A stretch of 64,000 nt of DNA from Candidatus Omnitrophota bacterium. GTDB taxonomy: Bacteria; Omnitrophota; Gorgyraeia; 2-01-FULL-45-10. The notes below the pieces were generated by a model. That model saw nothing but the letters and a program-made list of their open reading frames with translations. It searched no databases and was not told the origin of the DNA. Below, one piece after another: positions 38,350 to 62,401 of the stretch. Each line of letters starts with the position of its first letter. Position 1 is the stretch's first letter. Made by a program: the position numbers and the translations under genes. The stretch covers positions 6,456 to 70,455 of the forward strand of contig CAIMPC010000057.1 of the NCBI GenBank assembly GCA_903843285.1. The letters are read 5' to 3'.

Positions 38350-38362
38350 AAACTTTTTCCGG

Positions 38363-45999: not shown

Positions 46000-46305
46000 T
46001 TATTTCGCCTTTATCTTCGCTTCCAGATGATCTAATCTCTTTTTCAGCAGCACATTCTCTTTTGCTATCTCATTGTCCTTTGCTTTTGAAGACAGGTAGG
46101 AATCCTGCTGCCACCAATTTATCCCCATCTCCATTGCCTTATCAACTGAGGCGACCAATAACCTTATCTTAATATTGAGAAGATCAATATCGGCAATCTG
46201 GATCTTTATGTCCCCGGCGATCACGATCCCTTTATCTAATACCCGCTCTAAAATATCCGCCAGATTTGTAGCATCGTTGGCATGTATCATCTTTGTGTTA
46301 GGCAT
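46000..46305 (-). CDS. gvpJ: Gas vesicle protein GvpJ-like (GvpA-family core with a C-terminal extension).
   Basis: LADILERVLDKGIVIAGDIKIQIADIDLLNIKIRLLVASVDKAMEMG matches the GvpA/J hydrophobic core. Confidence 0.75.
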   Translation of the reverse strand: MPNTKMIHANDATNLADILERVLDKGIVIAGDIKIQIADIDLLNIKIRLLVASVDKAMEMGINWWQQDSYLSSKAKDNEIAKENVLLKKRLDHLEAKIKAK

Positions 46306-46325
46306 AACACATTCTCCTTTTCTGT

Positions 46326-46607
46326 TTATGCTAGCTTTTTCACTTTTATAATTATATCCGCCGCCCTCTTGCGTAAGCTCGCTATATACCGGCAGTTTTC
46401 ACAATCAATGTTTGCGCTCTTATAGTCCTGGCAGGCAAGCAGTACATCCGCCTCTTTCCGCAGCTCTTCGGCAAATACCGCTTTTCCCACCACTCCCTCG
46501 ATCGCATTGATCTTATTCGTGATATCTTTTATCACCGCCTCCTGCTTTTGAAATATAGCACAGTTTACCTTAGCGCCGTCTTCACGATCCATATTTTCTC
46601 CTCTCAC
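46326..46607 (-). CDS. Small hypothetical protein in the gvp cluster (93 aa, Cys-containing).
   Basis: Tightly packed between gvpJ and gvpK. No recognised motif. Confidence 0.45.
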   Translation of the reverse strand: MRGENMDREDGAKVNCAIFQKQEAVIKDITNKINAIEGVVGKAVFAEELRKEADVLLACQDYKSANIDCENCRYIASLRKRAADIIIKVKKLA

Positions 46608-46939
46608 ATTAAATCTCCTAAGGGCCCTAAATTAATGTTCAATTCCTCATCCTTAAGCCCGAAGATCTCTTTCAAATCCTTCATTTTGTTCTCTAACTTC
46701 ATCAATGTTTCACCGATCCGCTCGACCTCCTCGTCGGTAAGAGAACCCGCCTCTACCCTTCTCATCGCCTGTTTTTCCATTAACTTCCGAATCAGTTCTA
46801 TGAGAGTAAGAACCAGCTTCGCCAATCCCTTCTCCACGTTTTCAGGATTTGCCTCGATCTTTTTAGGCAGCGCATCCTTAACTTTTTCCATCTCGCCGGC
46901 AAAAATCTCGAGAGAATCCGTCTCGATTGTTTTACTCAT
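46604..46939 (-). CDS. gvpK: Gas vesicle protein GvpK.
   Basis: GLAKLVLTLIELIRKLMEKQAMRRVEAGSLTDEEVERIGETL...LNINLGPLGDL matches the GvpK consensus. Confidence 0.8.
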   Translation of the reverse strand: MSKTIETDSLEIFAGEMEKVKDALPKKIEANPENVEKGLAKLVLTLIELIRKLMEKQAMRRVEAGSLTDEEVERIGETLMKLENKMKDLKEIFGLKDEELNINLGPLGDLM

Positions 46940-47739
46940 AGCTGCCTACCATCCTTTTCTTCCGGATATTTGTGTTGCAATATAGTTTCGATCAAATCAG
47001 GCCCGCCAAACTTCCTATCCCCGGAATGACTTAACGTGATAAAATTATACGCCGGCCACGGGCCGCTGAGCATATACTTAAGATCTCCTCCGGAAGAGCG
47101 CAATTCCTCGAACGCTTCCATAAAGTCATCTTTCTTTTTCCTGTCCACCAGATAGGCGGCGCTTAGGAGCAGATTGTCGGTCTTTAATTTTTCGAGTTTT
47201 TTTTCGGAGACGTACCTGTTCAAAAACTCATCTACGATAGAGATGCATCTATCCGCCTCTTCTTCGAACTCTTTGTCTATCTTGTACTTTTCGAACTTCT
47301 CTTTCATGAATTTAGCTCCTGACTGCACGGCGTTCACCGGAGCGCTTTCGTCCTTATGGGCACTTGCTATTCTATCTTTTATGACATTGCCCGCCCAAAT
47401 AACCTTTATGCCGAATTCGCACTTACCGTACACCCGGTCTAAGTTCTCTGTAAAATCCTCATAATGATCTTTCACCCTTAAAAGCATCTCTTCTTTTCCT
47501 GCAAAAACCGTATATAGTCTCATCGGCAGAACGGTGAATCTGTCCATCAGCGCTTCCACGATTTCCTCGTGCTTTAAAACAGACTCTTCGGTTTTGATTT
47601 GGACCTGGGGATCGAGATTACTCACCACTATTCCGATATCGCGATAAGGGATACTATAAATAGGGGCCTCGCATAGTCCCTTATTGGATTCGTCCATCTC
47701 CTTATTAGAATCGATTATGGCATAGACATATAATCTCAT
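46936..47739 (-). CDS. Gas vesicle protein GvpF/GvpL family (paralog 1).
   Basis: YVYAII...GIVVSNL...VLPMRL... and C-terminal SGPWPAYNF. Confidence 0.75.
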   Translation of the reverse strand: MRLYVYAIIDSNKEMDESNKGLCEAPIYSIPYRDIGIVVSNLDPQVQIKTEESVLKHEEIVEALMDRFTVLPMRLYTVFAGKEEMLLRVKDHYEDFTENLDRVYGKCEFGIKVIWAGNVIKDRIASAHKDESAPVNAVQSGAKFMKEKFEKYKIDKEFEEEADRCISIVDEFLNRYVSEKKLEKLKTDNLLLSAAYLVDRKKKDDFMEAFEELRSSGGDLKYMLSGPWPAYNFITLSHSGDRKFGGPDLIETILQHKYPEEKDGRQL

Positions 47740-47742
47740 CTT

Positions 47743-48036
47743 TTACGTCGGCTCCTCGGTTGCGCCAGGCATAGGAGCTCCTCTTAAGTGCTCCATCGTC
47801 TCTACTGAGCTCAAGAGAACCCTTAATCCTAAATATACAAGATCCACATCAGCTACGGAAATAACTATATCTCCGGATATGACTACGCCCTTTGTCAGAG
47901 CCCTATCCAGGATCTCTAAAAGCGTGACCCTTTCCTTCTTACGAAGATCTAAATAGCTTTTCTTATCCTGCGTGGTTTTTATCGGATTATCCATCGTGCA
48001 TCCTTTTATTGTAGGGCAGGCTTTAACTTGTCCCAC
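47743..48036 (-). CDS. GvpA/GvpJ/GvpM-family small hydrophobic gas vesicle protein.
   Basis: LLEILDRALTKGVVISGDIVISVADVDLVYLGLRVLLSSVETME. Confidence 0.7.
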   Translation of the reverse strand: MGQVKACPTIKGCTMDNPIKTTQDKKSYLDLRKKERVTLLEILDRALTKGVVISGDIVISVADVDLVYLGLRVLLSSVETMEHLRGAPMPGATEEPT

Positions 48037-48115
48037 TATCTAATAACCCGAACTGTAGCGCACATTTAAAGATGCGCCACTTCTCACTACATTGAGAGTT
48101 TACAAAAAAAGAAGG

Positions 48116-48919
48116 TTAAATCTGACTTACCTGCTTACAGAAATTATAAGGCGGCCAGGGGCCCGTGCAGTCAAATATCAGCCCCTTATCCGCATATTTA
48201 GCCTTGAGACATGATATAACATTTTCAAACTCTTTGATCCGCTTGCTGCTTATCAAAAACGCGGCGTTTAACACCATATCCTCTTTCTTTTCCGTTACCT
48301 CTTTAGGTAATATATTATTAATCTTAGCATTCACAGCGACTATTTTTAATCTTTCAAAACAGTCCTTTGTGTATTCAGAGATCTTTTCGTTAATGATATC
48401 TTTTACTATCTCTTCCTTTTTCTTCTTTAAAAAGAATGCCTTGCCCGGGCCGGCGGCGAGAATTTCTTTGTCTTGCGCTATGATCCGTTCGTTCTTTGAG
48501 CAAAGGGTATCTTTAAAATATTCACTGCTACAGTATATCTTAAGGCCCCGCTCCTCTTTACCCTCCAGAAAATCCAGCACAGTCTTAAACTCGAGATTAT
48601 TTGCTTTAAGCAATTTTTCTACATTCGCTTTGCACTCAAAAACCGTACCGAATTTAAAAGGCAGCACGGTTTGCTCTTTCATGATCTTCTCTATCACCTT
48701 CTCGTGAAGCCGGATATTTCTCTCCACCCAACTCATGTCGGTCAGATGCCTTTTTAGATTTATCTCACTAAAGTCTTCGGGCGAGACGCTGCTGATAACC
48801 GCGTAAGTCCCCTGAAAATAAACAAGCTCGACCTTAACCCCTAAATCCGCAAAATCATAAGATGGAAGACTATCCTTTGTAACACAGTACAAATAGAGGA
48901 GCTCTTTCACCGCGATCAT
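48116..48919 (-). CDS. Gas vesicle protein GvpF/GvpL family (paralog 2).
   Basis: LYLYCV... and C-terminal TGPWPPYNF. Confidence 0.75.
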   Translation of the reverse strand: MIAVKELLYLYCVTKDSLPSYDFADLGVKVELVYFQGTYAVISSVSPEDFSEINLKRHLTDMSWVERNIRLHEKVIEKIMKEQTVLPFKFGTVFECKANVEKLLKANNLEFKTVLDFLEGKEERGLKIYCSSEYFKDTLCSKNERIIAQDKEILAAGPGKAFFLKKKKEEIVKDIINEKISEYTKDCFERLKIVAVNAKINNILPKEVTEKKEDMVLNAAFLISSKRIKEFENVISCLKAKYADKGLIFDCTGPWPPYNFCKQVSQI

Positions 48920-49179
48920 TCTCCCGGGCTAAGAGTCCCTTTGCGCTCGTAGGATTCTACCTCCAGGTCACCGCTTAGTTTAAGGGCGTATATATTCCTG
49001 TCCTGCACTTTCGTAGAAAGCCCGAGAGACTTGATAAATGAACTCGCTTCAAAAACCTCTGCTTCACATTCCCACCCATCGCCAACCTTTGAGACCTTGA
49101 TCACTGTTACGTCCTTGACGCTGAGGGTCTTCCTTAAAAAATCTATAACCTCTTTTTTCGCACCTTCTATATTGGCCAT
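48916..49179 (-). CDS. Small hypothetical protein in the gvp cluster (87 aa).
   Basis: Translationally coupled (4-nt overlap) with the downstream GvpF/L gene. Family not recognised. Confidence 0.45.
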   Translation of the reverse strand: MANIEGAKKEVIDFLRKTLSVKDVTVIKVSKVGDGWECEAEVFEASSFIKSLGLSTKVQDRNIYALKLSGDLEVESYERKGTLSPGE

Positions 49180-49181
49180 TT

Positions 49182-49424
49182 CTATTCTCCCTCTTCCTCT
49201 TTTGCTTTTCTGATAGCGTCCAATCGCGCCAAAAGTTCCGCTTCCTGTTTATTAAACTCTTGCTCATTGATCTTATCCAGCTCAAATCGCATCTGTAGTT
49301 CCATAAGTTTCTCTTTTATGAGCCCTTCATCAGAAAATTCCTTTTCCACCACATTATCGATCTTTTTAGCCAGCCAAATTATGCCATTTAATGGCGCGAG
49401 TAATATATCATCCAGTAAAAACAT
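49182..49424 (-). CDS. gvpG: Gas vesicle protein GvpG.
   Basis: MFLLDDILLAPLNGIIWLAKKI...LMELQMRFELDKINEQEFNKQEAELLARL matches the GvpG consensus. Confidence 0.75.
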   Translation of the reverse strand: MFLLDDILLAPLNGIIWLAKKIDNVVEKEFSDEGLIKEKLMELQMRFELDKINEQEFNKQEAELLARLDAIRKAKEEEGE

Positions 49425-49425
49425 T

Positions 49426-50196
49426 TTAGTATCCCATCGTTTCGATCACGAGGTTCACAAAATTAAAGGGAGGCAGTGTTCCCACATATTTAAATTTTAT
49501 CTTGTCATCATATTTATCCGCGAGGATCTGAACATTCCGGTCAAATTCCGTTTCATTCGCATTCTCTACCAGAAATGCGGCGCTTATGATCATCAGCTCA
49601 CCATAAGGATTGTTGACCTTCGTATCTTTCGCCAAAGGCGATAGCGTCTCTAAAATCTCCTTCTTGTACATATCCTTCTGTTCCTGCAGGGCGGCTTCGA
49701 CTTTCCTGCCGGCCTCCATACGCAGATAGTAGGTCTTTGCCGGCGGCTCGGATGACAACGCTTTTTTAATTTTCTTAATATCTTCGTAATTCTCCGCTAT
49801 CTCTTTATATATTACGTCTTCCTTGAATATAGCGCGTAAACCCAGTTCTTTTTTACCTTCTATATTTTTTAGCATGCCGGTAAATTTATCATGCTCTTTT
49901 TCCAATATCTTTTTTACTTTATTTTCATCCTGGGCAATGGTGCAAAATCGTACCGGCAAAACCGTATATTTTTTCATTATCTCCTCTATCGCCTTCTCAT
50001 GGGCAAGCATATTCTCTCTCGAGACTGCATAGCTTATTATCGGAGAATTACTGACTACGGCCGCGATATCCTTATAAAGGATGGAATGCAGTTCATCACC
50101 TCGTCCGCCAATCCCGAGAGCTCCAAAGGATTCGGCCTCTTTTGACGCGATAATACAATATATATACTTACCTTCTTTTCCTGCAGTATCCTTCAT
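49426..50196 (-). CDS. Gas vesicle protein GvpF/GvpL family (paralog 3).
   Basis: KYIYCIIAS...AAVVSNS...VLPVRF... and GTLPPFNFVNLVI. Confidence 0.75.
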   Translation of the reverse strand: MKDTAGKEGKYIYCIIASKEAESFGALGIGGRGDELHSILYKDIAAVVSNSPIISYAVSRENMLAHEKAIEEIMKKYTVLPVRFCTIAQDENKVKKILEKEHDKFTGMLKNIEGKKELGLRAIFKEDVIYKEIAENYEDIKKIKKALSSEPPAKTYYLRMEAGRKVEAALQEQKDMYKKEILETLSPLAKDTKVNNPYGELMIISAAFLVENANETEFDRNVQILADKYDDKIKFKYVGTLPPFNFVNLVIETMGY

Positions 50197-50970
50197 CTAC
50201 TTCTCCCACTCCTCAGGATATATAACGATATTGACGAAGTTAAATACGGGTAAAGGTCCCGTATACATAAATTTCACTCTTCTCCCATGCTGTTCGCCCA
50301 GATCGCACATTATATTATCAAACTCTTTCTCCCTGCCTTTATCCACCAAAAACGCGGCGTTCATGAACATCTCATCGCCCACAGTCTTATTGAGCTTATG
50401 ATCAAAGGCTGTCCTCCTCAGCGCTTCTACAATGCCTTCAGCCTCTTTATCTTTCTTCTTTTCCAGAGCCCTCTCCACCATCTTACCTATTTCATTTTTG
50501 GCCTGAATATTTTTTTTACTATTATCTTTCAGAAGCTTCTTTTTTAACAGCTCAATCGCTTTATTCTCATCTACAATTTCTTTGAATATAGCGGGCATAT
50601 TATTCCATATGCCTTTAACACCCAATTCTACTTTATGATCCACGTCACGTAACGCACTCTTAAACTCTCTGTATCTTTTGCTTAGGAGATTTCTTATTTC
50701 ATCGGCGTTTGACGCGATAGTCCCGAACCTTACCGGAAGCACACCGTCAAACTCCTTCATCACTGCCTCGATCACCCGTTCATGTGTAAGCATATTCTCT
50801 GAGTTAACGGTTAATTTAGATAGAGGGTGACTGCTCACGACCATGCTTATGTCGTCATAGCCTATGGTTGAGACATCGTCACCTCTTTCACCTATTCCTA
50901 TAGGCCCGAAACTTCTCTCCTGCGACGAAGCTATAACGCAATATATATACCGTCCTTCCTTCTGTATCAT
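50197..50970 (-). CDS. Gas vesicle protein GvpF/GvpL family (paralog 4).
   Basis: RYIYCVIAS...SMVVSSH...LPVRFGTI... and TGPLPVFNFVNIVI. Confidence 0.75.
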   Translation of the reverse strand: MIQKEGRYIYCVIASSQERSFGPIGIGERGDDVSTIGYDDISMVVSSHPLSKLTVNSENMLTHERVIEAVMKEFDGVLPVRFGTIASNADEIRNLLSKRYREFKSALRDVDHKVELGVKGIWNNMPAIFKEIVDENKAIELLKKKLLKDNSKKNIQAKNEIGKMVERALEKKKDKEAEGIVEALRRTAFDHKLNKTVGDEMFMNAAFLVDKGREKEFDNIMCDLGEQHGRRVKFMYTGPLPVFNFVNIVIYPEEWEK

Positions 50971-52019
50971 TCTCTTACCCTCACCAATATAGGATCGTTA
51001 TTTTGACCTGCCTGCCCGACTGATAATGCTGCATCGGTCAGGCGGGCCTGGTTAAGAGCCGTGCAGTATTCTGTAAGTATTCTGTATGCCCTGTTCACCT
51101 CATCAAATTCTTTTCCGGCGCTGAATGAACCCGGGTTTCTGTCCGGGTGAGTGAAAACCGCCTGCCTCTGATAGGCTTTTTTGACCTCGTCCTTGCTTGT
51201 AATATCGCTTAAGATCCCCAGCCTTTTCTTCGCCCAACCTATATCTTCATTACTTATACTATTCGTCTCGAGGGTATAAAAGCTATAAGGCGGAAGAGGG
51301 CCGATGCACCTGAAATTCAGTCGTTCATTGAATTTGATATTTAGCTCTTCCACCTTCATATCAAAGTCTTTATGCTTAGCTTTATCAATTAGAAAAGCTA
51401 TATTAATTACCATCTTATCATCCATGGGCTCATGTACTTTTAAGGCCTGGCTTACGCTTTTAAGGGTATCTTGTATCTGCTTAGAATACAACTCCCTATC
51501 TCTATCCAACGCGTCTTTGACCATAAGCCCAATCTTCATCTGGTCATCCACGGTTACGCCTCCGGGTGAGGATAAAAGCCGATCCTTAAATTCCCGGATC
51601 TCCTTGCTTTCCCCTATTCCTTTAATGATCGAATAGAAGTCACCCCAAATGGCCGTTACGTCAATCTCGATCCTGTCAGATATTTTAGTGAAGACATCTT
51701 TAATTACAGTATAACCGCATGCCAATATATGTTTAACCTCATCCTCATCTTTGGCAAAGATCCCCAACCTCATAGGAATGATTGTATGGTTCAAACTCAT
51801 GATCTTTTCGATAGCCTTTTGATGTCTCACTAAAAACATAGCTAAAACGTCTTTGCGCATCCGCGTATAATCAACTATTTCAGAATCGCTCACTACAGCC
51901 GAAATATCCCGATAAGAAACGGTATAGACCTCTTCGCAGTCAGTAACCCCGTAAGAGCCAAAGAATACCTCTTTATCAGAATTTAAAACTCCGTAAATAT
52001 ATTTACCGCTATATTTCAT
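50967..52019 (-). CDS. GvpF/GvpL-family domain fused to a C-terminal DnaJ J domain (paralog 5).
   Basis: The N-terminal about 265 aa is GvpF/L-like (KYIYGVL..., IGPLPPYSF). The C-terminus WAKKRLGILSDITSKDEVKKAYQRQAVFTHPDRNPGSFSAGKEFDEVNRAYRILTE has J-domain helices II/III and the HPD motif. Confidence 0.7.
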   Translation of the reverse strand: MKYSGKYIYGVLNSDKEVFFGSYGVTDCEEVYTVSYRDISAVVSDSEIVDYTRMRKDVLAMFLVRHQKAIEKIMSLNHTIIPMRLGIFAKDEDEVKHILACGYTVIKDVFTKISDRIEIDVTAIWGDFYSIIKGIGESKEIREFKDRLLSSPGGVTVDDQMKIGLMVKDALDRDRELYSKQIQDTLKSVSQALKVHEPMDDKMVINIAFLIDKAKHKDFDMKVEELNIKFNERLNFRCIGPLPPYSFYTLETNSISNEDIGWAKKRLGILSDITSKDEVKKAYQRQAVFTHPDRNPGSFSAGKEFDEVNRAYRILTEYCTALNQARLTDAALSVGQAGQNNDPILVRVRE

Positions 52020-52171
52020 GATACCTGTCTTTCAATGCGTGATTCAATTTCACTCGACATCCATAAAAGGCCTAAGCTATTTTTATTCCGGAGTTTTCGT
52101 CTTTTTCCTTAGTACGCCGACTAATAATTTCTTAAAACTGTCCACCAAACCCTTGATTAGGCTTGCCATGC

Positions 52172-54349
52172 TTAAGCCTCCCTTTTCTTTATTATCTTCA
52201 CGGCTTCATCGAAGAATTTTTTCTTTATGGTAAAAGTTTTTAACTTCTCTTCGCTGATCTTGCCTTTTTCTTTTTCCAGAAAATCCCTCATCGAAAGGAT
52301 CGAAGCGCTCCTTACTACCGATTCTATATCCGCGCCGGTAAAATTATCCGCTTCAATCGCTAATTTTTTAAGATCAACGTCGCTGTCCAGAGGCTTTTCT
52401 TTTGTGTGTATTTTATAGATCTCCAGCCTTGTTTTCTCGTCGGGAAGAGGAAGCTCTAAAAGCAGATCGAATCTTCCCGGCCGCAATACTGCTTTGTCAA
52501 CAAGATCCACTCTATTGGTAGCCCCAAGGATAAGCACTCCTTTTAGCTCTTCTATTCCATCCATTTCGGTCAGGAACTGACTGATAACCCGTTCGGATAC
52601 ATGGGAAGCATCTCCGCCGCTTCTGAGAGGGACTATGGAATCCATCTCATCAAAAAATAATATGCAGGGCGATGCCTGTTTTGCTTTACGAAATATCTCG
52701 CGGATTCCTTTTTCGCTCTCGCCAACGTATTTAGACACCAGCTGAGGCCCTTTAATAGAGATGAAGTTAACCCCGCTCTCGCTGGCCACTGCCTTAGCCA
52801 ATAACGTCTTTCCCGTGCCCGGGGGGCCATAAAGCAGGATCCCTTTAGGCGGGTTAGTGTCGGCTTTCTTAAAAAGTTCGGCATATTTTAGCGGCCATTC
52901 CACGGTCTCCATCAGCCGCTTTTTTATATCTTCCAGGCCTCCTACGTCGCTCCATTTGACATCCGGCACCTCCACAAAAACCTCTCTGATCGCCGATGGC
53001 TCAATCTCTTTCATCGCTTCTAAAAAATTATTCATGCCCACTTCCAGCTTCATCAGTGTCTCGTAGGGGATCTCCGCCATTTCAAAATCTATCTTGGGCA
53101 GGATCTTTCTTAAGGCTGACATAGCCGCTTCCCGCGCCAAGGCCTCCAGATCCGCGCCTACGTATCCATGTGTAATCTCAGCCAGTTTCTCAATGCTTAC
53201 GTCTTCCGCTAACGGCATGCCCCGCGTGTGAATCTGGAGTATCTCCAATCTTCCGTTTTTATCGGGGATAGGAATGGACATTTCCCTGTCAAATCGGCCC
53301 GGACGCCTCAGAGCGGGGTCTATTAAGTTAGGTACGTTTGTCGCCGCCATAACAATAACCTGTCCTCTGGATTCCAATCCATCCATCAAAGACAGGAGCT
53401 GAGCTACCACTCTGCGCTCAACCTGTTTCTCCGCGCCCATATCCTCTCTTTTTGGAGCGATGGATTCAATTTCATCTATAAAGATTATTGCCGGGGCATG
53501 AGCCTTAGCGTCTTCAAATAGCGAGCGAAGCCGCTGTTCCGCCTCACCGTAAAATTTCCCCATGCACTCGGGTCCGCTCATACTGATAAAATATGCGTCG
53601 GTCTCATTGGCTACCGCGCGGGCGATTAATGTCTTTCCGCAACCCGGAGGCCCGTAAAAAAACACTCCCTTAGGCGGCTGGATTCCCAGCCTCTCAAATA
53701 CTTCAGGAAATCTTAATGGAAGTTCAACCATTTCTCTGATCCTTTGGATCTGAGTGCCCAGCCCGCCAATATCTTCGTAGGAAATTTTGGCATGTTTACC
53801 TTCCGCCGCTTCTTTATCGTCCGATGCTCTCCCTTTCGTCTCCATCCTTATCAGAGTAGAAGAACCTATTATAACTACTCCGCCGGGGATGGTATCCTCT
53901 ACTTTAAAATCGCACGCCTTGGTCCCGAAGAGAGTAGCCCTGATTTTATCGCCTTTCATAACCGGCAGTCCTGCGACAAGTGACCCGATATACTTAGTAT
54001 CTTGATCTCCCCGCAGCGCAGTGGATGCTGTCAGAGAAGAGAGCGTAATCTTATTGGCAGGCTTAGAATCAACCTTGCGGATCTTCACCTTATCATCCAA
54101 TCCGATATCCGCGTTATCCCTGGCTATCCCATCTATCTGAATGATCTTTTTCCCTCGCTCATCAGCATAACAGGGCATCAGTTTCGCCGCGGTCTTCCTC
54201 TTCCCTTCAATCTCAACGATCTCCCCGACTTCCAGCCCTAAGATTTTTAAATCCTCCGGGTCGATCCGGGCGATTACCCTGCCGACATCTTTTGGCAGAG
54301 CTTCTTTTACTTTCAGAGTCAAGCCCTTATCGTCTTTTTTCGTCGTCAT
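52172..54349 (-). CDS. CDC48/VCP-like AAA+ ATPase (N domain plus two AAA+ modules) embedded in the gvp cluster.
   Basis: Two Walker A motifs GPPGCGKTL and GPPGTGKTL. Walker B DEID/DEMD. SRH regions. An N-terminal double-psi-barrel-like segment. Confidence 0.85.
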
Positions 54350-55284
54350 TGGAATAACCTCCCGGTATATTTATCTAACGCCTCAATGCCTCTAATCTCA
54401 CTGGCTTGTAATGGCAAAATAGTAGTCTTTAAACCGCTAAATTTTCTTCGTATCTGTTTTATATGTTCTTCCTGGGCATCACTTCTTTCCCGGCAAAACT
54501 GACAATCTCTCGACTCTAAACAATTATTCACCAATAACTGTTTTACTCTTATGCCATACCCGTTTAAATCATTTACCAATCTCTCTGTTTCTAAAATTGC
54601 CATATCTTCAGGGATAGTAACTGCCACAAACTCACATCTTTTCCGATCCTTAAGCAGGTCCTCTATCTTTTTCACTGTCTTCTTCATCTCCATCAGAAAA
54701 TCATCGCCTTCGTCAGGATTATACTTGCCGGAAAAACTTTCTACCATGTATCTGTATTTCCATCGCATCTTCGCTAAAACCTTGATCCACTCATCCAAAA
54801 GCTGCGGCAGAGTCAAAAGTCTTAATGCGTGGCCTGTAGGCGCCGTATCCACAATATATTTATCAAATTTTGCCTCATCTATTAAATCTACAATGGTCTT
54901 AAAACCCATAACCTCATCTATGCCAGGGATAGGTAAAGCGAACATAGAATCAACATCTTCCTGGTCTAGATAAGTAGAGGTGTCAAAAATCTTTTTTATT
55001 TGACCCTCGTATTTTATCTTAAATTGTGAAAGAGCTTTTTTTGCGTTTACTTCCAGGGCGCTTAAATTTTTTACCCCTTTTATTTCTCTTATCTCATCTC
55101 CTACTCTTTGGCCTAAGCTATCTGAAACTGAATGCGCCGGATCGGTGGAGATAACTAATGTCTTAAAACCGTTCTTAGCCAAATAAAGACCCGCGCTCGA
55201 GGCGCAGGTCGTCTTTCCCACTCCGCCCTTTCCGCCAAATAATATTAATTTCAACGCGGCTTCTTTTAATCCTGTTAATGCCAT
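54346..55284 (-). CDS. ArsA/Get3-family P-loop ATPase.
   Basis: Deviant Walker [11 protein letters not shown]. ArsA signature [13 protein letters not shown]-terminal CxxC ([10 protein letters not shown]). Confidence 0.8.
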
Positions 55285-55287
55285 CCA

Positions 55288-55857
55288 CTACTTCTTTATC
55301 TTGATCTCTAGCATACCATTGGTATAGGCTGAAGTCATGTTTTCCGTTTTTAACTTCATGGGGAGCAATACCTCTTTATGGTATTTTCTATCGCCGCTGT
55401 GGGCGGATATATCCAGGATGTCTTCTTTTAAATCTAATTTTATATCCTCCTGACTTACCCCCGGCATCTCAGCGTAGATCTTAACATCTTCTTTTTCATC
55501 AAAGAGATCGGTAATAGGCTCTCTCTCCTCATCAATTTTAGGGCCTTTAGGGGTCTTCTTTATGTTGCCGAACGGCTCTACAATGGGCTTGCCGCCTACC
55601 GCGCTCTTTACAGAAAAACCAAACACGCCTTTCATCCCTTTTTTAAGATGACTTAGATCTATTTCGCCTTCTTGTTTGATTTCACCACCCGATTCTTTTA
55701 GCTTTGTAGCGAAGTCGACCAGTTTCTCTATGCCGCTAAATAGCCCTCCTAAACCTATTTTACCCATGCCAAAATCAATATCTAGACCCTCTTTTTTCTT
55801 CTCTCCATCACCATTCGGGCCTCTATTCGATTGTTTCTTATATTTCTCCATTTTCAT
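55288..55857 (-). CDS. Hsp20/alpha-crystallin-domain small heat-shock protein (GvpH-like position in the cluster).
   Basis: ACD C-terminus ...KYHKEVLLPMKLKTENMTSAYTNGMLEIKIKK (A-x-x-x-NG-x-L-x-I). Gly-rich N-terminus. Confidence 0.7.
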   Translation of the reverse strand: MKMEKYKKQSNRGPNGDGEKKKEGLDIDFGMGKIGLGGLFSGIEKLVDFATKLKESGGEIKQEGEIDLSHLKKGMKGVFGFSVKSAVGGKPIVEPFGNIKKTPKGPKIDEEREPITDLFDEKEDVKIYAEMPGVSQEDIKLDLKEDILDISAHSGDRKYHKEVLLPMKLKTENMTSAYTNGMLEIKIKK

Positions 55858-55877
55858 TCCCCCCTTTTATTATACGC

Positions 55878-56258
55878 TTATTTCTTTGGTACAACGCCCT
55901 TCCCTCTACAGGTCAAGCAGGGGAGGTCCGATCCCTTTTCTCTACCTCTGCATTTACATGTCAAACAGGGTTCGGTATCTTCACTGTTTACACTTATCAC
56001 GCCTTTTCCTTTGCAGACAATACACGCAAGAGCCCTATTCGAGAGCGAACGACCTTCCCCGTTGCAATAAGCGCAAATAACCGCCGGCGATGAAACCCTT
56101 ACATTTCCGGCGCCTGAACAGGCAGAACATTGTGTGCTTTTTTTAGAGGGTATAAGCCCCATCCCTTTACAAAATGCACATCTATAGCTCGTCCTATAAA
56201 GAACTTCTCCTCTTTGACCTACTTTCTGGCTTTTCCAATCAAATGTCTTCCAAATCAT
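55878..56258 (-). CDS. DnaJ-type CxxCxGxG zinc-finger (CR-domain-like) protein.
   Basis: At least five CxxC units: CAFCKGMG, CSACSGAG, CAYCNGEG, CIVCKGKG, CLTCKCRG and CLTCRGKG. Confidence 0.65.
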   Translation of the reverse strand: MIWKTFDWKSQKVGQRGEVLYRTSYRCAFCKGMGLIPSKKSTQCSACSGAGNVRVSSPAVICAYCNGEGRSLSNRALACIVCKGKGVISVNSEDTEPCLTCKCRGREKGSDLPCLTCRGKGVVPKK

Positions 56259-56271
56259 TAAAAAATACCCA

Positions 56272-56577
56272 TCAGTACTGCACAGATAGTTTTTTCATGG
56301 GTTTTGAGGGGACTCTTTTACAAGTCTTGACAGTCTGATCCTCACGCACTTCAAATTGCAATTTTTCAATCCGCCTGCATACGGAATATAAAAGTTTTTG
56401 TGCGGTGGTAATCCTTTTGTTCAATACATAGATCTCTTTCTCGAGCCTATCCTTTTCTCTCCCGCTCACATACAATTCCAGGTAAGCGGATCTTTGCGCT
56501 TTGGGCACAGAACTGCCCCCTATAGAATGTATGCTCTTAATATCCCTAACGCTTATTACCCGCTGTATCCCTTTCAT
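56272..56577 (-). CDS. Hypothetical coiled-coil protein (101 aa) in the gvp cluster.
   Basis: Tight spacing between gvpN and the Zn-finger gene. No recognised motif. Confidence 0.45.
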   Translation of the reverse strand: MKGIQRVISVRDIKSIHSIGGSSVPKAQRSAYLELYVSGREKDRLEKEIYVLNKRITTAQKLLYSVCRRIEKLQFEVREDQTVKTCKRVPSKPMKKLSVQY

Positions 56578-56610
56578 ACGGCCTATCTCCCTTCATATCC
56601 GGGAATCTCT

Positions 56611-57678
56611 TTAAACAGCAACAGCTTCTTTTTTTAACTTCTTACTTGCGCCTACAGTCTTTTTGCCGGCGCGTATAGTCTTCTTATTAACTCTACCGGT
56701 TTCTCCATCAGATCCGGAGGCCTTTTTGGCAATACTGATAGTTTTGCCGGAGCTGACTTCTTTTTTAACTAGCTCTTTCACTATCTCTTTCACCCTATCC
56801 TGATTAGTCTTTGAACCGACTCTGCTTGTCTCAGAAGCCAATATGTCCTGACACATCTGCGTAAAAGCCCCATCGGAGCTTTTTATAGGGGTAACGCCCT
56901 GAACTTTAAGGGTCTTGGCGATCATAATACAGCCGCGGACGGTGGGAGCAAATTCACATTTTCCTGACTCTCTTAAACCCCTCACAATATTGACGATCGC
57001 CCCGGAGTGTTGCCTCGAAAGCTTGGACTTTGCCTGAGTGATAGCCACCTCTGTCTCATAGTCAAAGTAGTCCAGGTCCATGGTGATCATTCTGTCCCTT
57101 AATGCGTCCTGGCTCCTGTGAACGCCGGCATACTCTTCGGGATTAGATGTAAATATAGCGTTAAAGTTCGGATCAACCTTTAAATAAGGCTCTTCTCCGC
57201 CTCTGCCCACAGGCAAATCCATCATCTTCTCCTGTAGGATAGAAAGAAGTATGTTATTCGCCTCAGGCCGGGAACGGGTGAACTCATCATAAATCAATGT
57301 GAATCCGTACTTACAAGCGACGGTCAGTCGATTATCCACCCAGTGCTTTACCATATCTTCTTCAGTCTTTAAGACCCTGGAGATAAACCGGTCCACAACC
57401 TTCTTTATCCTGTAACCGTATTCGCCTCCCACCAGATCGGAGGTGGTGAACTCTTCGTCTCCGTGGATCATAACCACAGGCCTTCCGAGCTTACTTGCTA
57501 TATGCATAGCCAGTGTTGTTTTACCGGAGCCGGATATCCCTCTAAAATGGACAGGGAAACCCGCCTTTATATAGGCAAGTGCCCTGACTGTGATATCCTT
57601 TATATAGCCAGTATCCACGAAGTCCGGTAAAGGACTGGGGTCTAATACTGTGGTCATTTCATCAATCATTTTTTTCAT
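56611..57678 (-). CDS. gvpN: Gas vesicle AAA+ ATPase GvpN (CbbQ/NirQ/GvpN family) with a Lys-rich C-terminal tail.
   Basis: GISGSGKTTLAMHIASKLGRPVVMIHGDEEF.... Walker B LIYDEF. C-terminal KKTIRAGKKTVGASKKLKKEA. Confidence 0.85.
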   Translation of the reverse strand: MKKMIDEMTTVLDPSPLPDFVDTGYIKDITVRALAYIKAGFPVHFRGISGSGKTTLAMHIASKLGRPVVMIHGDEEFTTSDLVGGEYGYRIKKVVDRFISRVLKTEEDMVKHWVDNRLTVACKYGFTLIYDEFTRSRPEANNILLSILQEKMMDLPVGRGGEEPYLKVDPNFNAIFTSNPEEYAGVHRSQDALRDRMITMDLDYFDYETEVAITQAKSKLSRQHSGAIVNIVRGLRESGKCEFAPTVRGCIMIAKTLKVQGVTPIKSSDGAFTQMCQDILASETSRVGSKTNQDRVKEIVKELVKKEVSSGKTISIAKKASGSDGETGRVNKKTIRAGKKTVGASKKLKKEAVAV

Positions 57679-58009
57679 CCCTCTTCCTGGATGTTAATGT
57701 TTTATTCATTGCACTCCAGAGCCTATTTGCTTCAACTAAATCGGCACGGATACCCTTTTCCTTCTTCCTGAAATCATCCCTTAAAGAAGAGACCTTTTTG
57801 ATCAGTTCAATTCTATCTTCGCAAAGTCCCGTCTTTAAGGATTTGGTCATCTCCTTATGAACTTTTCTACAGTGGTCCACAAACTTCCTGGCATTGTCCC
57901 TAATGGTTTCTGCCTGCTGCCTTAAATCCTCCATACTTTTCTTTCTATCCTCACGAGCCGTGGTAATGTTGTCACAAAGAGACTTCATACCACTCGATAT
58001 ATTGCTCAT
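57662..58009 (-). CDS. Small coiled-coil protein (115 aa) sharing an N-terminal motif with the two GvpC-like proteins upstream.
   Basis: The N-terminal MKSLCDNITTAREDRKKSMEDLRQQAETIRDNARKFV motif parallels the MKSITENIISSYDARVKGLTDL...ILGNARSAVKGF motif of 58025..58804. Confidence 0.5.
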   Translation of the reverse strand: MSNISSGMKSLCDNITTAREDRKKSMEDLRQQAETIRDNARKFVDHCRKVHKEMTKSLKTGLCEDRIELIKKVSSLRDDFRKKEKGIRADLVEANRLWSAMNKTLTSRKRDEKND

Positions 58010-58024
58010 ACTTGATCTCCTTTA

Positions 58025-58804
58025 CTAGCTCTTTTTTCTTCCTTTTTTCTTTCCGGCCTTTTTCTTGCTCTTCTTCTCGATGGTCTTCTCAACTGAAACT
58101 ATCTCGTCTCCGGCCTCGATTTTAGGCATTACCCCTGTCCCTCTGGATTTGGCCAGACTGGAAGACATACCCTGCCATGCCGATTTTGCCTTTGCTATAT
58201 CCGAGCCATACTCACCCATGAGTTTACGCGTATCACCCAAAAGTTTTCTGACATCGCCGGATATATTACCGACATATTTTGCCAGGCTGCTTCTTAAGGC
58301 ATCTGACATCTCGTTATGAGCCTCGTCAAATTCCTTCAGTTTCTTTTGAGTATAACCTTCTATATCCTTTACCGATTTAGCAAGAGCTGACCTCGTATCC
58401 TCCAACATCTTCTTCTGATCAGCCGACATCTTTTCCCGATCCGCATGTATGACCTTTAACTTCGCGGCAGTGTCCTTTAACTGTGAGGCCACATCTTTCG
58501 CTATGGCCTTAACAAAAGCTGCCAAGTTTGCGGCCTGCTTTTCACTCATCTCTTCATGGTTCGCCTGAAACCCTTTGAGCATGGAGCCCACATTCTTTTC
58601 CAGATCATTGACAAAACCCGCGAGGTTGCCCGCCAGTTCACCGGCCATCTTCTTCCTGTCCTGGGCAAAACCTTTTACTGCCGATCGGGCATTTCCTAAT
58701 ATACTATTCGTATCGGCTGTTAAATCAGTTAATCCTTTCACCCGCGCATCATAAGACGAGATAATGTTCTCGGTGATGCTTTTCATGCTATCAGCTATTC
58801 CCAT
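58025..58804 (-). CDS. GvpC-like repeat protein (about 33-aa F-x3-H-x2-M-S...V repeats) with a poly-Lys C-terminal tail.
   Basis: Units include KGFQANHEEMSEKQAANLAAFVKAIAKDV, KVIHADREKMSADQKKMLEDTRSALAKSV and KEFDEAHNEMSDALRSSLAKYVGNISGDV. Tail is KKSKKKAGKKKGRKKS. Located directly downstream of gvpA. Confidence 0.55.
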   Translation of the reverse strand: MGIADSMKSITENIISSYDARVKGLTDLTADTNSILGNARSAVKGFAQDRKKMAGELAGNLAGFVNDLEKNVGSMLKGFQANHEEMSEKQAANLAAFVKAIAKDVASQLKDTAAKLKVIHADREKMSADQKKMLEDTRSALAKSVKDIEGYTQKKLKEFDEAHNEMSDALRSSLAKYVGNISGDVRKLLGDTRKLMGEYGSDIAKAKSAWQGMSSSLAKSRGTGVMPKIEAGDEIVSVEKTIEKKSKKKAGKKKGRKKS

Positions 58805-58876
58805 TTTGATACCCTCCTTTTTTATCCTTCGACGCGCTTCGCTTTCTCAGGATTAATCCTGAGTTTGTCGAAGGGT

Positions 58877-59662
58877 TTAGCTCACCTGGTTATTTTGTTT
58901 TTTATCGATCTTCGCTTCATCTATATCAATTGTCTTTGGCGAAAAGGCAAGTTTTTGTCTCTGCTTTCCAAAATCCTGGAGCATTTTGGCAACCTCTTCC
59001 TTCCTTTTCTTCTGCAAGCTTATTCTTTCCACGCGTTGGGACTTAATCTTACTGATCATTAATCTAAAGTCCTTTATCCGAAGATTTTCGCCCTTTGCTA
59101 CAAGATCTGTAAGTTGACGAGGTATCTCTTTTTGTTCGCCCTGAAACTCTCTTAATCTGGAAACAATCTCACTCTTTTGCTTTTCCTGTTTGGTGAAAAT
59201 GGTTTTTAGCGCTGACTGCACATGTCTGATTTTTTCTATTTCTCCCCTGGCAATGGCCTCCTTACATTCTCTCAGAGCTTCCTTTAATACTATAGCGACA
59301 CTCCTCTCCTCGGTAAAATATTCCCTTATTAAGTCTTTCACCTCTTCGGCGCATTCTTCCTGGAATGACAGCACGCTAGCCATTATCTTATCGTAATCCT
59401 TCTTCCTCAGGCTGTCATTTTTGGCGAGAAGATCCCTGAGCTGGCTATTAATCTTCTCCTTTTCCGGATTGTTGCCAAGAAGGGACTCCGGAAGGCAATC
59501 AATTAGTGATTGGGAAACCTCAAATACAGAGCTAAGATTCTCTATTCTGGTTTCATAGGAAGCGAGGATATTCTCTACTGTTTCTTTTGTTCCTTTCAGA
59601 TCTGTCACTTCCTGCATAGCTTTATCCACTCCTCTCTTAGAAGGAACTCCTTGGCTAACCAT
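58877..59662 (-). CDS. Coiled-coil protein, third member of the GvpC-like/N-motif family, immediately downstream of gvpA.
   Basis: VENILASYETRIENLSSV motif. The start is set at the ATG at 59662 with an AGGAG Shine-Dalgarno 6 nt upstream. The longer ORF to 59701 begins with TTG. Confidence 0.5.
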   Translation of the reverse strand: MVSQGVPSKRGVDKAMQEVTDLKGTKETVENILASYETRIENLSSVFEVSQSLIDCLPESLLGNNPEKEKINSQLRDLLAKNDSLRKKDYDKIMASVLSFQEECAEEVKDLIREYFTEERSVAIVLKEALRECKEAIARGEIEKIRHVQSALKTIFTKQEKQKSEIVSRLREFQGEQKEIPRQLTDLVAKGENLRIKDFRLMISKIKSQRVERISLQKKRKEEVAKMLQDFGKQRQKLAFSPKTIDIDEAKIDKKQNNQVS

Positions 59663-59724
59663 GCTTTCTCCTGTTTTTACAGGATGAGGATGGCCGGGCA
59701 AGAACCCCTCTTCAACCTTATCCT

Positions 59725-59940
59725 TTAGGCTGCTGTTGCTGTTAAACCAATAGCCTCAGCATACTTCAGATAAGTCTCGACTGACGCCACTACAACTCTG
59801 GCTTCAACCGCGAGGATCTCTATACCAACTAGAGACACCCTTACCCAAGCATCAACCACCACGCCCTTATCCAGTATACGGTCAATAACTTCGACCAAGC
59901 TGGACGAACCAATCGTTTTCTCGACTGCCATGTGAATCAC
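59725..59940 (-). CDS. gvpA: Major gas vesicle structural protein GvpA.
   Basis: [54 protein letters not shown] is the canonical GvpA sequence. GGAGG Shine-Dalgarno upstream. Confidence 0.95.
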
Positions 59941-60275: not shown

Positions 60276-60291
60276 AGCAACAAGTGTGCCA
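60276..60291 (-). promoter_or_regulatory. Sigma-54 (RpoN) -24/-12 promoter, TGGCAC-N5-TTGCT, oriented toward gvpA.
   Basis: Minus-strand sequence is TATGGCACACTTGTTGCTATG, with the GG and GC dinucleotides at the canonical 10-nt spacing. rpoN and an NtrC-family activator are encoded in the same window. Confidence 0.6.
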
Positions 60292-60601: not shown

Positions 60602-60934
60602 CTACCACGTATCGCTCTCCAGGAAATATTCGGGGTCTGTCAGTATTGGCTTGTACTGGTCCGGAAACGGTATGGGGAAAGTAACGATCTCATATACACC
60701 CACCACCGCGCGGAATACTATCATAACGGCTCCCACAATCGGCCCGTATGTTACCGCGCCGACGGCACCGCTGTTCTCGTTGGCCTTCTTTACCTGCGAT
60801 ACACCCTCCCCCCAGCACGTTAATACGTTAGCGGCTCCCCGCCCTAATTTGATAAGAGGCGTGTCGCAATATCCGGCCCCTGACACGCATGACAAAAATA
60901 CCGCTATCATTATCACAGAAATGAATCTCTTCAT
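60602..60934 (-). CDS. Small secreted protein resembling the exosortase-system-associated TIGR04073 family.
   Basis: Signal peptide MKRFISVIMIAVFLSCVSGAG. LGRGAANVLTCWGEGVSQV and VVGVYEIVTFPIPFP motifs recalled from that family. Confidence 0.4.
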   Translation of the reverse strand: MKRFISVIMIAVFLSCVSGAGYCDTPLIKLGRGAANVLTCWGEGVSQVKKANENSGAVGAVTYGPIVGAVMIVFRAVVGVYEIVTFPIPFPDQYKPILTDPEYFLESDTW

Positions 60935-60953
60935 GCTATAGTATCCTCCCGGG

Positions 60954-61705
60954 TTATCTATAAATCTTGACTGGGGTAAGGGATATGTCGTCGGAGCTCA
61001 CCTTATCTCCCGCGGCGGCCTTTATTGTTACGCTGGAGGGTAAATAAAAACCTTTGGATTCAATATACTGTATCTCCATTTCGGTCTTTATCTCCTGCGC
61101 CACTATAATGCTTCTTTTCACCAGTCGTAATATATATTTGTTCTCGTATACTTCGAATAGCAACCGCGTGATTTCGTACAATTTTCCGTGCCTGAAAACT
61201 TCTTTCCTGTAAAGCCTTAAGTCTTTACCAAAATAGAGGATCTCTTTGCTATCCGCAGATTTATTTAACATCTCTATGGTGATGACCTTATCACTTCTTT
61301 TAATAGATATTTTAACGCCCCTTACTCGCTTTATGAGGATATCCGTAGCGGGGGCCATCATATCTAAGATATCTTTTATCTCGGCCTTCATTGCGGAGGC
61401 GGCCTTATCGAGGGATGCGTTCGAACCATATTTTTCCGATCCGACGGCCCTGGTTCTGGAGATAGCGGCGGGCTTGCCGGGCTTCCACCGGAGGATGAAT
61501 TCGACGTTACGGGCCTTCTCGCTTCTGCACTGAAAATCTATCTGCTTAATCTTGTGCTCGGCTAAATTATAATATTTACTGTTTATCTGCTCTATCAGTT
61601 CTCTCTCTTCTTTTGTCTGGCCATCATTAATAAGGCCGCACGAGACGAGCGACAGGCATACCCCAACCATCAAAAGAGACGCCAACACTGTCTTAAGCTT
61701 GCACA
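60954..61705 (-). CDS. Predicted lipoprotein (about 250 aa).
   Basis: Start at the ATG at 61705 (GGGAGG Shine-Dalgarno) gives MCKLKTVLASLLMVGVCLSLVSCG (lipobox LVSC). The longer ORF to 61808 merely reads through the upstream repeat element. Confidence 0.55.
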
Positions 61706-61730
61706 TGGATATAACCTCCCAGTCTAACTT

Positions 61731-61838
61731 TACGTCATTCTGACCCTGAGCGGAGCGCACTCCGTCATTCTGAGGGAGGCCATCGGCCGACCGAAGAATC
61801 TCGCTCATTAGATCCCTCGGCTACGCCTCAGGATGACG
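61731..61838. repeat. Hairpin repeat element copy 8 (two GTCATTCTGA arms plus a CTCAGGATGAC arm).
   Basis: CGTCATTCTGACCCTGAGCGGAGCGCACTCCGTCATTCTGAGGGAGGCCATCGGCCGACCGAAGAATCTCG...CCCTCGGCTACGCCTCAGGATGACG. Confidence 0.55.
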
Positions 61839-61861: not shown

Positions 61862-62395
61862 CTATAAGAGAATCCTCGTTACAACTATCGACGCCTTAAC
61901 ACCTTTACTATCTTTTTCCTGCGAGCCGAATCGCACCCGCGTTGTCCTGAGTAATAACGGTGATGTATTTATCTGATACAGAAAATTCGCTATAGACTCC
62001 GGATCGCCCTGTATCTCCAGGTCCATCGTGTACTCGGTATAAAAATCGACCTGCTGAGGCGAGCGCGTCTTCACATCTATCATGGAGACATGCGCCTTGC
62101 GCGCTAAACCTTCGATCTCGTCTAGGGTCTTCGAGACCTCTTCCTCGTCCGATTCGGTCTTCCTTATATTTTTTTCATATTTCTGGTATTCCGCCAATAC
62201 TGCGTCCTTTTGATTCAGGTTACGCAGGCCGAGAACAAGCCTCTTTTCATCCGTCTTAATATCGTGATTCAGTTTACGGAAACTGGACGCTATCGGAGAA
62301 ATAATCAGCCTGTCGAAAGCGGCTATCGAAATGATGAGGACCGCGATATATAAACCCTTCTTCTCTTTAACCGACAGCTTTGAAAAAAACTCCAT
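61862..62395 (-). CDS. pilO: Type IV pilus / T2SS inner-membrane assembly protein, PilO/GspM-like.
   Basis: N-terminal TM (LYIAVLIISIAAF) followed by a coiled coil and a periplasmic domain. Immediately downstream of the pilM-pilN fusion gene. Confidence 0.55.
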   Translation of the reverse strand: MEFFSKLSVKEKKGLYIAVLIISIAAFDRLIISPIASSFRKLNHDIKTDEKRLVLGLRNLNQKDAVLAEYQKYEKNIRKTESDEEEVSKTLDEIEGLARKAHVSMIDVKTRSPQQVDFYTEYTMDLEIQGDPESIANFLYQINTSPLLLRTTRVRFGSQEKDSKGVKASIVVTRILL

Positions 62396-62401
62396 CTATT
62401 T

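Follow-up and report, generated by a model that had tools for sequence, protein, structure and literature searches.

Hsp20, Get3-like ATPase and CDC48-type unfoldase genes form a conserved triad in a bacterial type of gas vesicle gene cluster

The gas vesicle protein (gvp) operon discussed here lies on a 64,000-nt stretch of DNA from a Candidatus Omnitrophota bacterium (contig CAIMPC010000057.1 of assembly GCA_903843285.1), referred to below as the window. The original prediction, made from the letters of this stretch, had described four consecutive genes at 52172-56258 within the gvp operon as a chaperone and insertase module, consisting of a CDC48-like AAA+ protein, an ArsA/Get3-like ATPase, an Hsp20 and a DnaJ-type zinc-finger protein, with GvpN and a J-domain fusion on its flanks. 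Open reading frame (ORF), Pfam and NCBIfam analyses agree on the four genes, and the two flanking genes were recovered as claimed (TIGR02640 for GvpN; PF06386 and PF00226 for the fusion). Three of the four genes, in the order Hsp20-ArsA-CDC48, are a conserved, co-inherited part of this type of gvp cluster. They encode a GvpH-like alpha-crystallin protein, a single-domain Get3-like ATPase and a double-ring unfoldase. It is very likely that they make up a dedicated module. That this is the protein-handling module of one widespread bacterial gvp cluster type, and that it works in the manner proposed below, is the account towards which we lean on balance; the specific division of labour among the three proteins is moderately likely.

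Related loci were obtained by look-ups of ArsA homologues (three, at 80-84% identity), by a scan for ArsA of one genome per species, and by a protein search with the CDC48 of Chlorobium. The scan gave 16 true loci (one spurious locus, L023, was left out) from Omnitrophota, a metagenome-assembled genome (MAG) labelled 'Nitrospinae', Planctomycetota/Pirellulales and Chlorobium. The search with the Chlorobium protein returned homologues labelled Aminicenantes, Bacteroidetes, Chlorobiales and Omnitrophica, and four of their contigs were read. All proteins of the window operon were then compared with all 26 related loci by tblastn. The three homologues from the look-ups share the neighbourhood seen in the window. 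The order Hsp20-(ArsA)-CDC48-GvpF/L was found inside a gvp cluster at every one of the 26 loci, and at 25 of them, from Omnitrophota, Planctomycetota/Pirellulales, Chlorobi and Bacteroidota, the triad is contiguous and followed by GvpF/L. The exception is locus L024 of an 'Aminicenantes' MAG, in which the Hsp20 gene adjoins that of CDC48 while ArsA, here a two-domain protein of 632 amino acids (aa), is encoded elsewhere in the same cluster. Recurrence at all 26 loci places the arrangement far beyond chance. As the original prediction expected, relatives from several phyla keep the genes within gvp clusters, and the idea that they entered the window operon by a chance insertion was not borne out. 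The prediction of a conserved block of four genes held for the Hsp20-ArsA-CDC48 core; the zinc-finger gene moves, is duplicated or is missing, for example in Chlorobi.

Identity to the window proteins across these loci is 54-84% for ArsA (leaving out the two-domain ArsA of L024, at 37%), 61-96% for CDC48 and 57-85% for Hsp20. The CDC48 at the upper end, 96% identical to that of the window, is from locus L010, and the nearest named homologues belong to Omnitrophota MAGs. The sequence cluster that contains the CDC48 of locus L027 also holds proteins of the cultured Prosthecochloris marina and of a complete Prosthecochloris genome.

The history of the CDC48 genes agrees with this picture. Neighbour-joining places the gvp-linked CDC48 proteins from Omnitrophota, Planctomycetota, Chlorobi, Bacteroidota and 'Aminicenantes' in a single clade, recovered in 200/200 bootstraps. 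The branching within the clade mixes phyla, which implies transfer of the whole cluster as a unit; the triad is inherited with the gvp genes, horizontal transfer included. Among the matches listed in a search of a representative library, CDC48 proteins outside the clade are 34-62% identical to the window protein. Ten of them were looked up, and those with names are mostly archaeal (Altiarchaeum, Thermoplasmatota, a haloarchaeon and an Asgard lineage), with Dadabacteria in addition. A tblastn search of plasmids with the CDC48 protein gave no homologue at 60% identity or above. The best plasmid matches were found on p1 of Methylocella tundrae (52%) and on pMSC49b of Methylosinus sp. C49 (49%), both inside gvp clusters. 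On these methanotroph plasmids the order is Hsp20 or 'GvpH', then a protein of 185-193 aa without a family match, then CDC48. The 185-193-aa protein (8378-8959 of locus L031 and 5358-5915 of locus L028) is conserved and fills the slot held elsewhere by the Get3-like ATPase. Taken with the main clade, the methanotroph data show that a CDC48 beside an alpha-crystallin protein recurs in bacterial gvp clusters, with at least two CDC48 lineages. The plasmid-borne CDC48 genes of Rhizobium leguminosarum and Methylobacterium radiotolerans (about 48.6% identity) are not near gvp genes, so bacterial CDC48 is not linked to gvp by default.

In the 725-aa CDC48-like protein Pfam recognises CDC48_N (E 6.6e-26), CDC48_2 (E 7.8e-10), two AAA and two AAA_lid_3 domains, and the protein scores 933.7 bits with the model TIGR01243 'CDC48 family AAA ATPase' (cutoff 802.65). 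Its closest solved relative is Thermoplasma VAT (5g4f; E 1.8e-216, residues 7-690 aligned). With VAT, Cdc48 and p97 it shares the N-D1-D2 architecture and intact Walker motifs in both rings (Walker A GPPGCGKT and Walker B FIDEIE in D1; GPPGTGKT and FFDEMD in D2). The pore loops of D1 and D2 are aromatic, KFYG and KYVG, as they are in VAT, a strong unfoldase (KYYG and KWVG); p97 is not known to have the aromatic pore residues in D1. By alignment, the Walker motifs, the pore loops and both arginine-finger regions are kept in all related loci. Unlike VAT and Cdc48, the window protein has a bacterial host, its gene cluster shows no evident proteasome or adaptor of the UBX/ubiquitin type, and the C-terminus, which reads ...IIKKREA, has no HbYX motif for docking to the 20S proteasome. 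The lack of HbYX argues against a proteasome-coupled role and does not affect family membership. Enzymes of the Cdc48/VAT type extract and unfold stable assemblies.

The ATPase motifs and the CxxC quoted in the original prediction are present in the 312-aa protein. It matches Pfam ArsA_ATPase at E 9.6e-83 and the model TIGR00345 GET3_arsA_TRC40 at 285.9 bits (cutoff 135), and it fails TIGR04291, the equivalog model of the ArsA pump, with 136 bits against a cutoff of 650. Among solved structures it is nearest to Chlamydomonas ArsA1 (5zme) and to archaeal Get3 from Methanothermobacter thermautotrophicus (3zq6) and Methanocaldococcus jannaschii (3ug6), with which it shares the P-loop, switch I and II and the CxxC, as well as full-length fold alignments at 34-37% identity. 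The CQFC (C261-x-x-C264) aligns with CEFC/CDFC of archaeal Get3 and by this alignment would be the zinc motif of the dimer interface. The P-loop, DPAHS, DTAPTGH and CxFC are invariant in 26/26 loci wherever the alignment reaches, and, judged by their motifs, the enzymes of the triad look catalytically competent. The putative client-binding helical regions (81-138 and 159-212) align to archaeal Get3 with short gaps and are predicted to be helical, at a predicted local distance difference test (pLDDT) value below 60. The AlphaFold model as a whole is of low confidence (pLDDT 59); its top 50 fold matches are all Get3/TRC40, at a template modelling (TM) score of about 0.66, and with such a model this ranking is supportive only. 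The family and equivalog scores point to a protein that is Get3-like rather than ArsA-pump-like. It differs from the Get3/TRC40 proteins in being shorter and in the nature of its presumed clients, GvpA, GvpJ and GvpM, which enter a protein shell at a gas-water interface and not a lipid bilayer.

The original prediction took the third protein for an alpha-crystallin small heat shock protein (sHsp). The domain is there; the assignment needs correction, in that the protein appears by its sequence to be related to GvpH, a gas vesicle protein already known. Pfam places the alpha-crystallin domain at residues 120-189, with 32.4 bits for PF00011 (cutoff 20.8) and 26.5 bits for PF17886 ArsA_HSP20, and the score with NF041800 'archaeal Hsp20', 138.2 bits, is just short of the cutoff of 140. 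The database version of the protein begins at Met3 and has 187 aa. AlphaFold models residues 110-189 with confidence and leaves the N-terminal 108 residues unresolved; the closest fold match of the domain is that of Sulfolobus Hsp20.1 (4rzk; 42% identity, TM score 0.90). The protein is conserved over its full length in 34 homologues, including a distinctive N-terminal region (24-115). The chain finishes with the final strand of the domain (...NGMLEIKIKK); neither it nor the 34 homologues have a C-terminal IxI/V extension. This motif builds the large oligomers of sHsps. PF05455 GvpH is matched weakly by 33 of the 34 homologues (best E 1.3e-5) and by the window protein at 13.7 bits, below the cutoff of 22. 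In BLASTP the window protein matches a Methylosinus protein annotated as GvpH by the Prokaryotic Genome Annotation Pipeline, at E 6e-17 over 161 residues, and this Methylosinus GvpH passes the PF05455 cutoff with 28.9 bits. Like GvpH of Halobacterium, the window protein is an alpha-crystallin-like gas vesicle accessory protein; unlike it, it stays under the Pfam cutoff and is partnered by ATPases, while Halobacterium GvpH pairs with GvpI in a heterodimer. Halobacterium GvpH is non-essential and prevents aggregation of GvpM. In one Omnitrophota relative a second Hsp20-like gene, of 201 aa, is located directly upstream of the usual one (L003, 8862-9467; L004, 2841-3446), and the C-terminus of its product bears a short zinc-finger-like match.

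In the heat-shock response of archaea, genes for Hsp20 and CDC48 are under joint regulation or lie in one operon (PMC5852551, PMC12974425), as in the Phr/HSR1 regulon and in the Nmar_0010/Nmar_0011 operon of Nitrosopumilus. In these cases, too, an sHsp gene and a CDC48/VAT-type gene occur together, and the window Hsp20 and CDC48 most resemble archaeal Hsp20 (Sulfolobus Hsp20.1) and archaeal CDC48/VAT. The window pair differs in being bacterial, in having the Get3-like gene inserted between its members, and in its place in an organelle-biogenesis operon that is apparently controlled by sigma-54, with no Phr or HSR1 regulator. Each of the three core proteins is most similar to archaeal ones, and the Hsp20-CDC48 arrangement mirrors the archaeal heat-shock pair. 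The module probably arose by co-option of a stress cassette of archaeal type.

The minus-strand operon spans about 46000-59940 of the window by ORF and Pfam reading (Table 1). Its order is gvpA, three coiled-coil genes, gvpN, the gene of a 101-aa protein, the zinc-finger gene, Hsp20, ArsA, CDC48, the GvpF/L-J gene and the remaining gvp genes, which follow each other in the same order in relatives. The module is tightly packed: the stop of arsA and the start of cdc48 overlap as ATGA, Hsp20 and ArsA are 3 nt apart, and 20 nt separate the zinc-finger gene from Hsp20. Within the module the sole minus-strand terminator candidate is weak, with a stem of 9 bp, and falls in the coding sequence of arsA (55210-55188). 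The triad is probably co-transcribed with the gvp genes.

Table 1. Features of the gvp operon and its flanks, with positions in the 64,000-nt window.
Feature	Position	Strand	Basis
CDC48/VAT-type double-ring AAA+ unfoldase (N, D1, D2), 725 aa	52172-54349	-	Pfam, TIGR01243
Single-domain Get3/TRC40/ArsA-family ATPase, 312 aa	54346-55284	-	Pfam ArsA_ATPase, TIGR00345
Hsp20/alpha-crystallin protein, apparent GvpH relative, 189 aa	55288-55857	-	Pfam
Stand-alone DnaJ-type cysteine-rich zinc-finger protein, 126 aa	55878-56258	-	PF00684
GvpF/L with C-terminal J domain, directly downstream of the module	50967-52019	-	PF06386 (E 2.3e-55) and PF00226 DnaJ (E 1e-11)
Amphipathic small ORF, 28 aa, MASLIKGLVDSFKKLLVGVLRKKTKTPE, directly after cdc48	52083-52169	-	Read from sequence
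Basic protein, 101 aa, between GvpN and the zinc-finger gene	56272-56577	-	No Pfam or NCBIfam match
GvpN (AAA_5-type ATPase), upstream of the module	56611-57678	-	TIGR02640 gas_vesic_GvpN, 336.8 bits (cutoff 266.8)
GvpA, 71 aa	59725-59940	-	PF00741 (E 3.9e-15)
Three coiled-coil proteins (274, 259 and 115 aa) between gvpA and gvpN	57662-59701	-	Pfam low-complexity matches only
Four GvpF/L, GvpG, GvpO-like, GvpJ/M, GvpK, 93-aa protein, GvpJ	46000-50970	-	Pfam
Sigma-54 promoter-like site TGGCAC-N5-TTGC (TGGCACacttgTTGC), about 340 nt upstream of gvpA	60277-60291	-	Consensus match
Strong terminator-like hairpin, 17-bp stem, directly 3' of the last gvp gene	45952-45993	-	Consensus scan

The sigma-54 site is the single exact match to the consensus in the window and is on the operon strand. 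Genes for RpoN and an NtrC-type response regulator are found at 34909-36213 and 36335-37726 on the minus strand, about 10 kb past the 3' end of the operon, and two histidine kinases with further receiver proteins are encoded at 37723-45825. Sigma-54 activators also adjoin gvp clusters in relatives, beside gvpA. Gas vesicle formation in this organism is probably under sigma-54 and two-component control. Scans of the window for tRNA and Rfam families gave no matches.

Around the fixed core the accessory genes vary. The zinc-finger protein passes PF00684 DnaJ_CXXCXGXG (41.6 bits; cutoff 32.7) with six CxxC motifs, and its solved relatives are DnaJ cysteine-rich domains (2ctt, 1exk). It is not a type I DnaJ: the 126-aa protein consists of the cysteine-rich domain only, and the J domain is carried by the separate GvpF/L fusion. 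The gene is present in two copies at differing positions in many loci and in one copy in some, and tblastn detected none in the Chlorobi loci. The HPD motif of the J domain in the fusion is intact, and loci of Omnitrophota, Planctomycetota, Bacteroidota and 'Aminicenantes' keep it; the Chlorobi loci do not have the fusion. The zinc-finger gene and the J-domain fusion are thus lineage-variable add-ons outside the fixed core. The small ORF after cdc48 (MASLIKGLVDSFKKLLVGVLRKKTKTPE) has homologues at the same place in loci L001, L002, L010 and L025, with a 30-aa gene called there in L001 and L002, and no homologue was found in the remaining loci. Homologues of the 101-aa basic protein adjoin gvpN in Omnitrophota, Planctomycetota and several other loci and were not seen in the Chlorobi or 'Aminicenantes' loci. 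The order from gvpA through the three coiled-coil genes to gvpN is conserved, with coiled-coil proteins 26-69% identical in relatives; these three are possible GvpC-like proteins of the outer layer in this type of cluster. At three loci a gene with a 'Volactin' domain (PF25216, an actin-like family) lies between GvpF/L genes (L005, 12323-13369; L006, 12285-13367; L025, 14994-16034), and none is present in the window.

Elsewhere in the window, a single minus-strand ORF at 633-30692 encodes 10,019 aa, in which Pfam recognises only a SecA-like ATPase region around residues 1600-2080 (SecA_DEAD, SecA_PP_bind and P-loop_SecA) and, near residue 8,850, HD_4 below threshold. Reports of giant genes in Omnitrophota exist. 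Two minus-strand genes at 60602-61808, located between the gvp promoter region and PilO/PilMN, encode proteins of 110 and 284 aa that match no family and whose N-terminal segments are strongly hydrophobic; the PilM/N/O genes, which mark the host as a bacterium, are at 61862-63904.

Homologues of arsA together with hsp20 were noted in gvp clusters of Chlorobi, Bacteroidetes, a Geobacter, cyanobacteria and an acidobacterium by Castillo & Saier (2010; PMC2963123), who proposed an energising or chaperone role in gas vesicle biogenesis for ArsA and Hsp20. They described the gvp-linked ArsA as a two-domain protein of about 600 aa and gave no functional clue for single-domain ones. In the loci considered here the two-domain form was met in L024 only, and the window ArsA is single-domain and Get3-like. 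The claim in the original prediction that the pathway was undescribed has to be narrowed accordingly: ArsA and hsp20 in gvp clusters were already published, whereas the CDC48-type AAA+ gene, and likewise the zinc-finger protein and the J-domain fusion, are not mentioned there. Neither a CDC48- nor a Get3-type component is listed in a review of gas vesicle proteins from 2022 (PMC9501494), and no description of an association of CDC48 with gas vesicles was found in the literature searched, most subscription journals being outside its reach. Three points appear to be new: the conservation of a CDC48-type unfoldase gene in gvp clusters, the single-domain form of the Get3-like ATPase and the reading as an archaeal heat-shock cassette.

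GvpA, GvpJ and GvpM aggregate without chaperones, and GvpH prevents the aggregation of GvpM (PMC9501494). By hydropathy the hydrophobic core of the window GvpA is at residues 35-51 of the 71 aa, so that at termination of so short a protein most of it would still be inside the ribosome tunnel. By analogy, GvpA would then pose the same problem that Get3 solves for tail-anchored proteins. In the mechanism that we propose, the alpha-crystallin protein and a dimer of the Get3-like ATPase would capture the new, short and very hydrophobic GvpA, GvpJ and GvpM after translation. Both chaperones would shield the hydrophobic hairpins destined to face the gas, and release, controlled by ATP, would pass the subunits to the nucleation and growth machinery based on GvpF/L. 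A hexamer of the CDC48-like protein, using the aromatic pore loops of both rings as VAT does, may thread and unfold off-pathway aggregates or mis-incorporated subunits for reuse. In Omnitrophota, Planctomycetota and Bacteroidota the J domain of GvpF/L and the zinc-finger protein might also bring in the Hsp70 system of the cell. The proposed working resembles that of the bacterial IbpAB, DnaK/J and ClpB system, where a holdase keeps clients retrievable, a hexameric double-ring AAA+ protein threads them from aggregates and a J domain recruits Hsp70. It differs in its AAA+ protein, which is Cdc48-like and not ClpB, in the fusion of the J domain to GvpF/L, a structural or assembly protein, and in that the genes adjoin one specific set of clients. 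A broader claim, that this is a dedicated bacterial Get3-sHsp-Cdc48 pathway for a protein organelle free of lipid membrane, with a Get3-type ATPase delivering GvpA-family subunits and a horizontally acquired Cdc48 of archaeal type as extractor, is put forward as a tentative one and is rather doubtful at present.

Several observations weigh against a dedicated assembly module of this kind. The client-binding helical subdomain of the Get3-like ATPase is modelled at low confidence only (pLDDT 59). The targeting and insertase role given to the ATPase in the original prediction stands as far as its Get3-like nature is concerned; a canonical C-terminal transmembrane tail anchor was found by hydropathy in no protein of the operon, so an insertase pathway in the literal Get3 sense finds no support. 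No Get1/2-like receptor gene was recognised among the cluster genes, in which no dedicated search for one was made. The loci were sampled by way of the module's own proteins, and they show linkage to gvp and not the fraction of gvp clusters that carry the module. The well-studied gvp clusters of Halobacterium, Anabaena, Priestia megaterium (B. megaterium) and Serratia form vesicles and are not known to encode a CDC48 (PMC9501494), so the module is not universally required. The mechanism is drawn for all module proteins from sequence and context, and conservation of the gene neighbourhood cannot separate a role in assembly from one in disassembly.

The last point bears on an alternative in which the module serves disassembly, the CDC48-like unfoldase pulling GvpA from collapsed or surplus shells and the Hsp20 and Get3-like proteins holding the subunits for reuse or degradation, by which cells could lower their buoyancy or recycle protein. 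The neighbourhood evidence fits this equally well, and a VAT-like protein with aromatic loops in both pores, from a family of extractors and unfoldases, would suit such a task. We consider disassembly fairly unlikely because the triad, in the middle of a biosynthetic operon, apparently shares the gvpA promoter and would be made alongside the shell protein; nor does the cluster encode a protease partner or the unfoldase carry HbYX. It is also conceivable that a general archaeal-type stress cassette, with clients across the whole proteome, hitch-hikes in a mobile gvp island, given that Hsp20-CDC48 is a generic archaeal heat-shock pair and that the proteins are ordinary family members by sequence. 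Such a passenger would hardly be expected to stay embedded among gvp genes at every locus examined, across phyla and rearrangements, with tight or overlapping junctions, a CDC48 clade that is gvp-specific and an Hsp20 with a family-specific conserved N-terminal region and affinity to GvpH. We therefore judge this improbable.

The remaining alternatives concern the ATPase. It carries the deviant Walker A GKGGVGKT of the SIMIBI class, which includes ParA, MinD and Get3, and matches CbiA, ParA and MinD weakly, and it might be a positioning ATPase of the ParA/MinD style that governs the spacing or segregation of gas vesicles, in the way McdA acts on carboxysomes, with the Hsp20-like protein as its adaptor. 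Sequence and fold matches are specifically to Get3/TRC40, down to the CxxC dimer motif and the helical insertions, and the MinD and ParA models score 19-27 bits only, as against 286 for the Get3 model, which makes such a role very improbable. The reading as a canonical arsenite-pump ATPase that lies in the operon by chance was rejected, and we give it next to no weight. What speaks for it is confined to the name of the Pfam family and to the label 'arsenite-transporting ATPase' in some source annotations. The protein has a single domain of 312 aa, while the duplicated form has about 580, the ArsA equivalog was failed, and the gene is always linked to gvp. Residues 100-175, where the metalloid-site cysteines of ArsA would be expected to align, contain no cysteine. 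No arsB, acr3, arsD or arsR is present in the window or among the called genes of related loci, in keeping with the non-ars role that the original prediction had assigned.

The known accessory proteins GvpF/L, GvpH and GvpN explain only in part how the very hydrophobic GvpA, GvpJ and GvpM are kept soluble and delivered into the growing wall. The sHsp, the Get3-like ATPase and the Cdc48-like unfoldase, all well-understood kinds of machine, with Hsp70-recruiting parts in some lineages, are concrete candidates for the handling of these proteins, and their carriers include cultured Prosthecochloris, with a variant form in Methylosinus and Methylocella. Poor assembly in foreign hosts is limiting in the engineering of ultrasound reporters, and if the proposal is true, addition of the triad could improve heterologous expression of gas vesicles as acoustic reporters. 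The gas vesicle proteins would then also be the first non-membrane class of clients for the Get3 family, and a bacterial Cdc48 would have a defined physiological substrate; among bacteria, such roles for Get3- and Cdc48-type proteins would be unusual.

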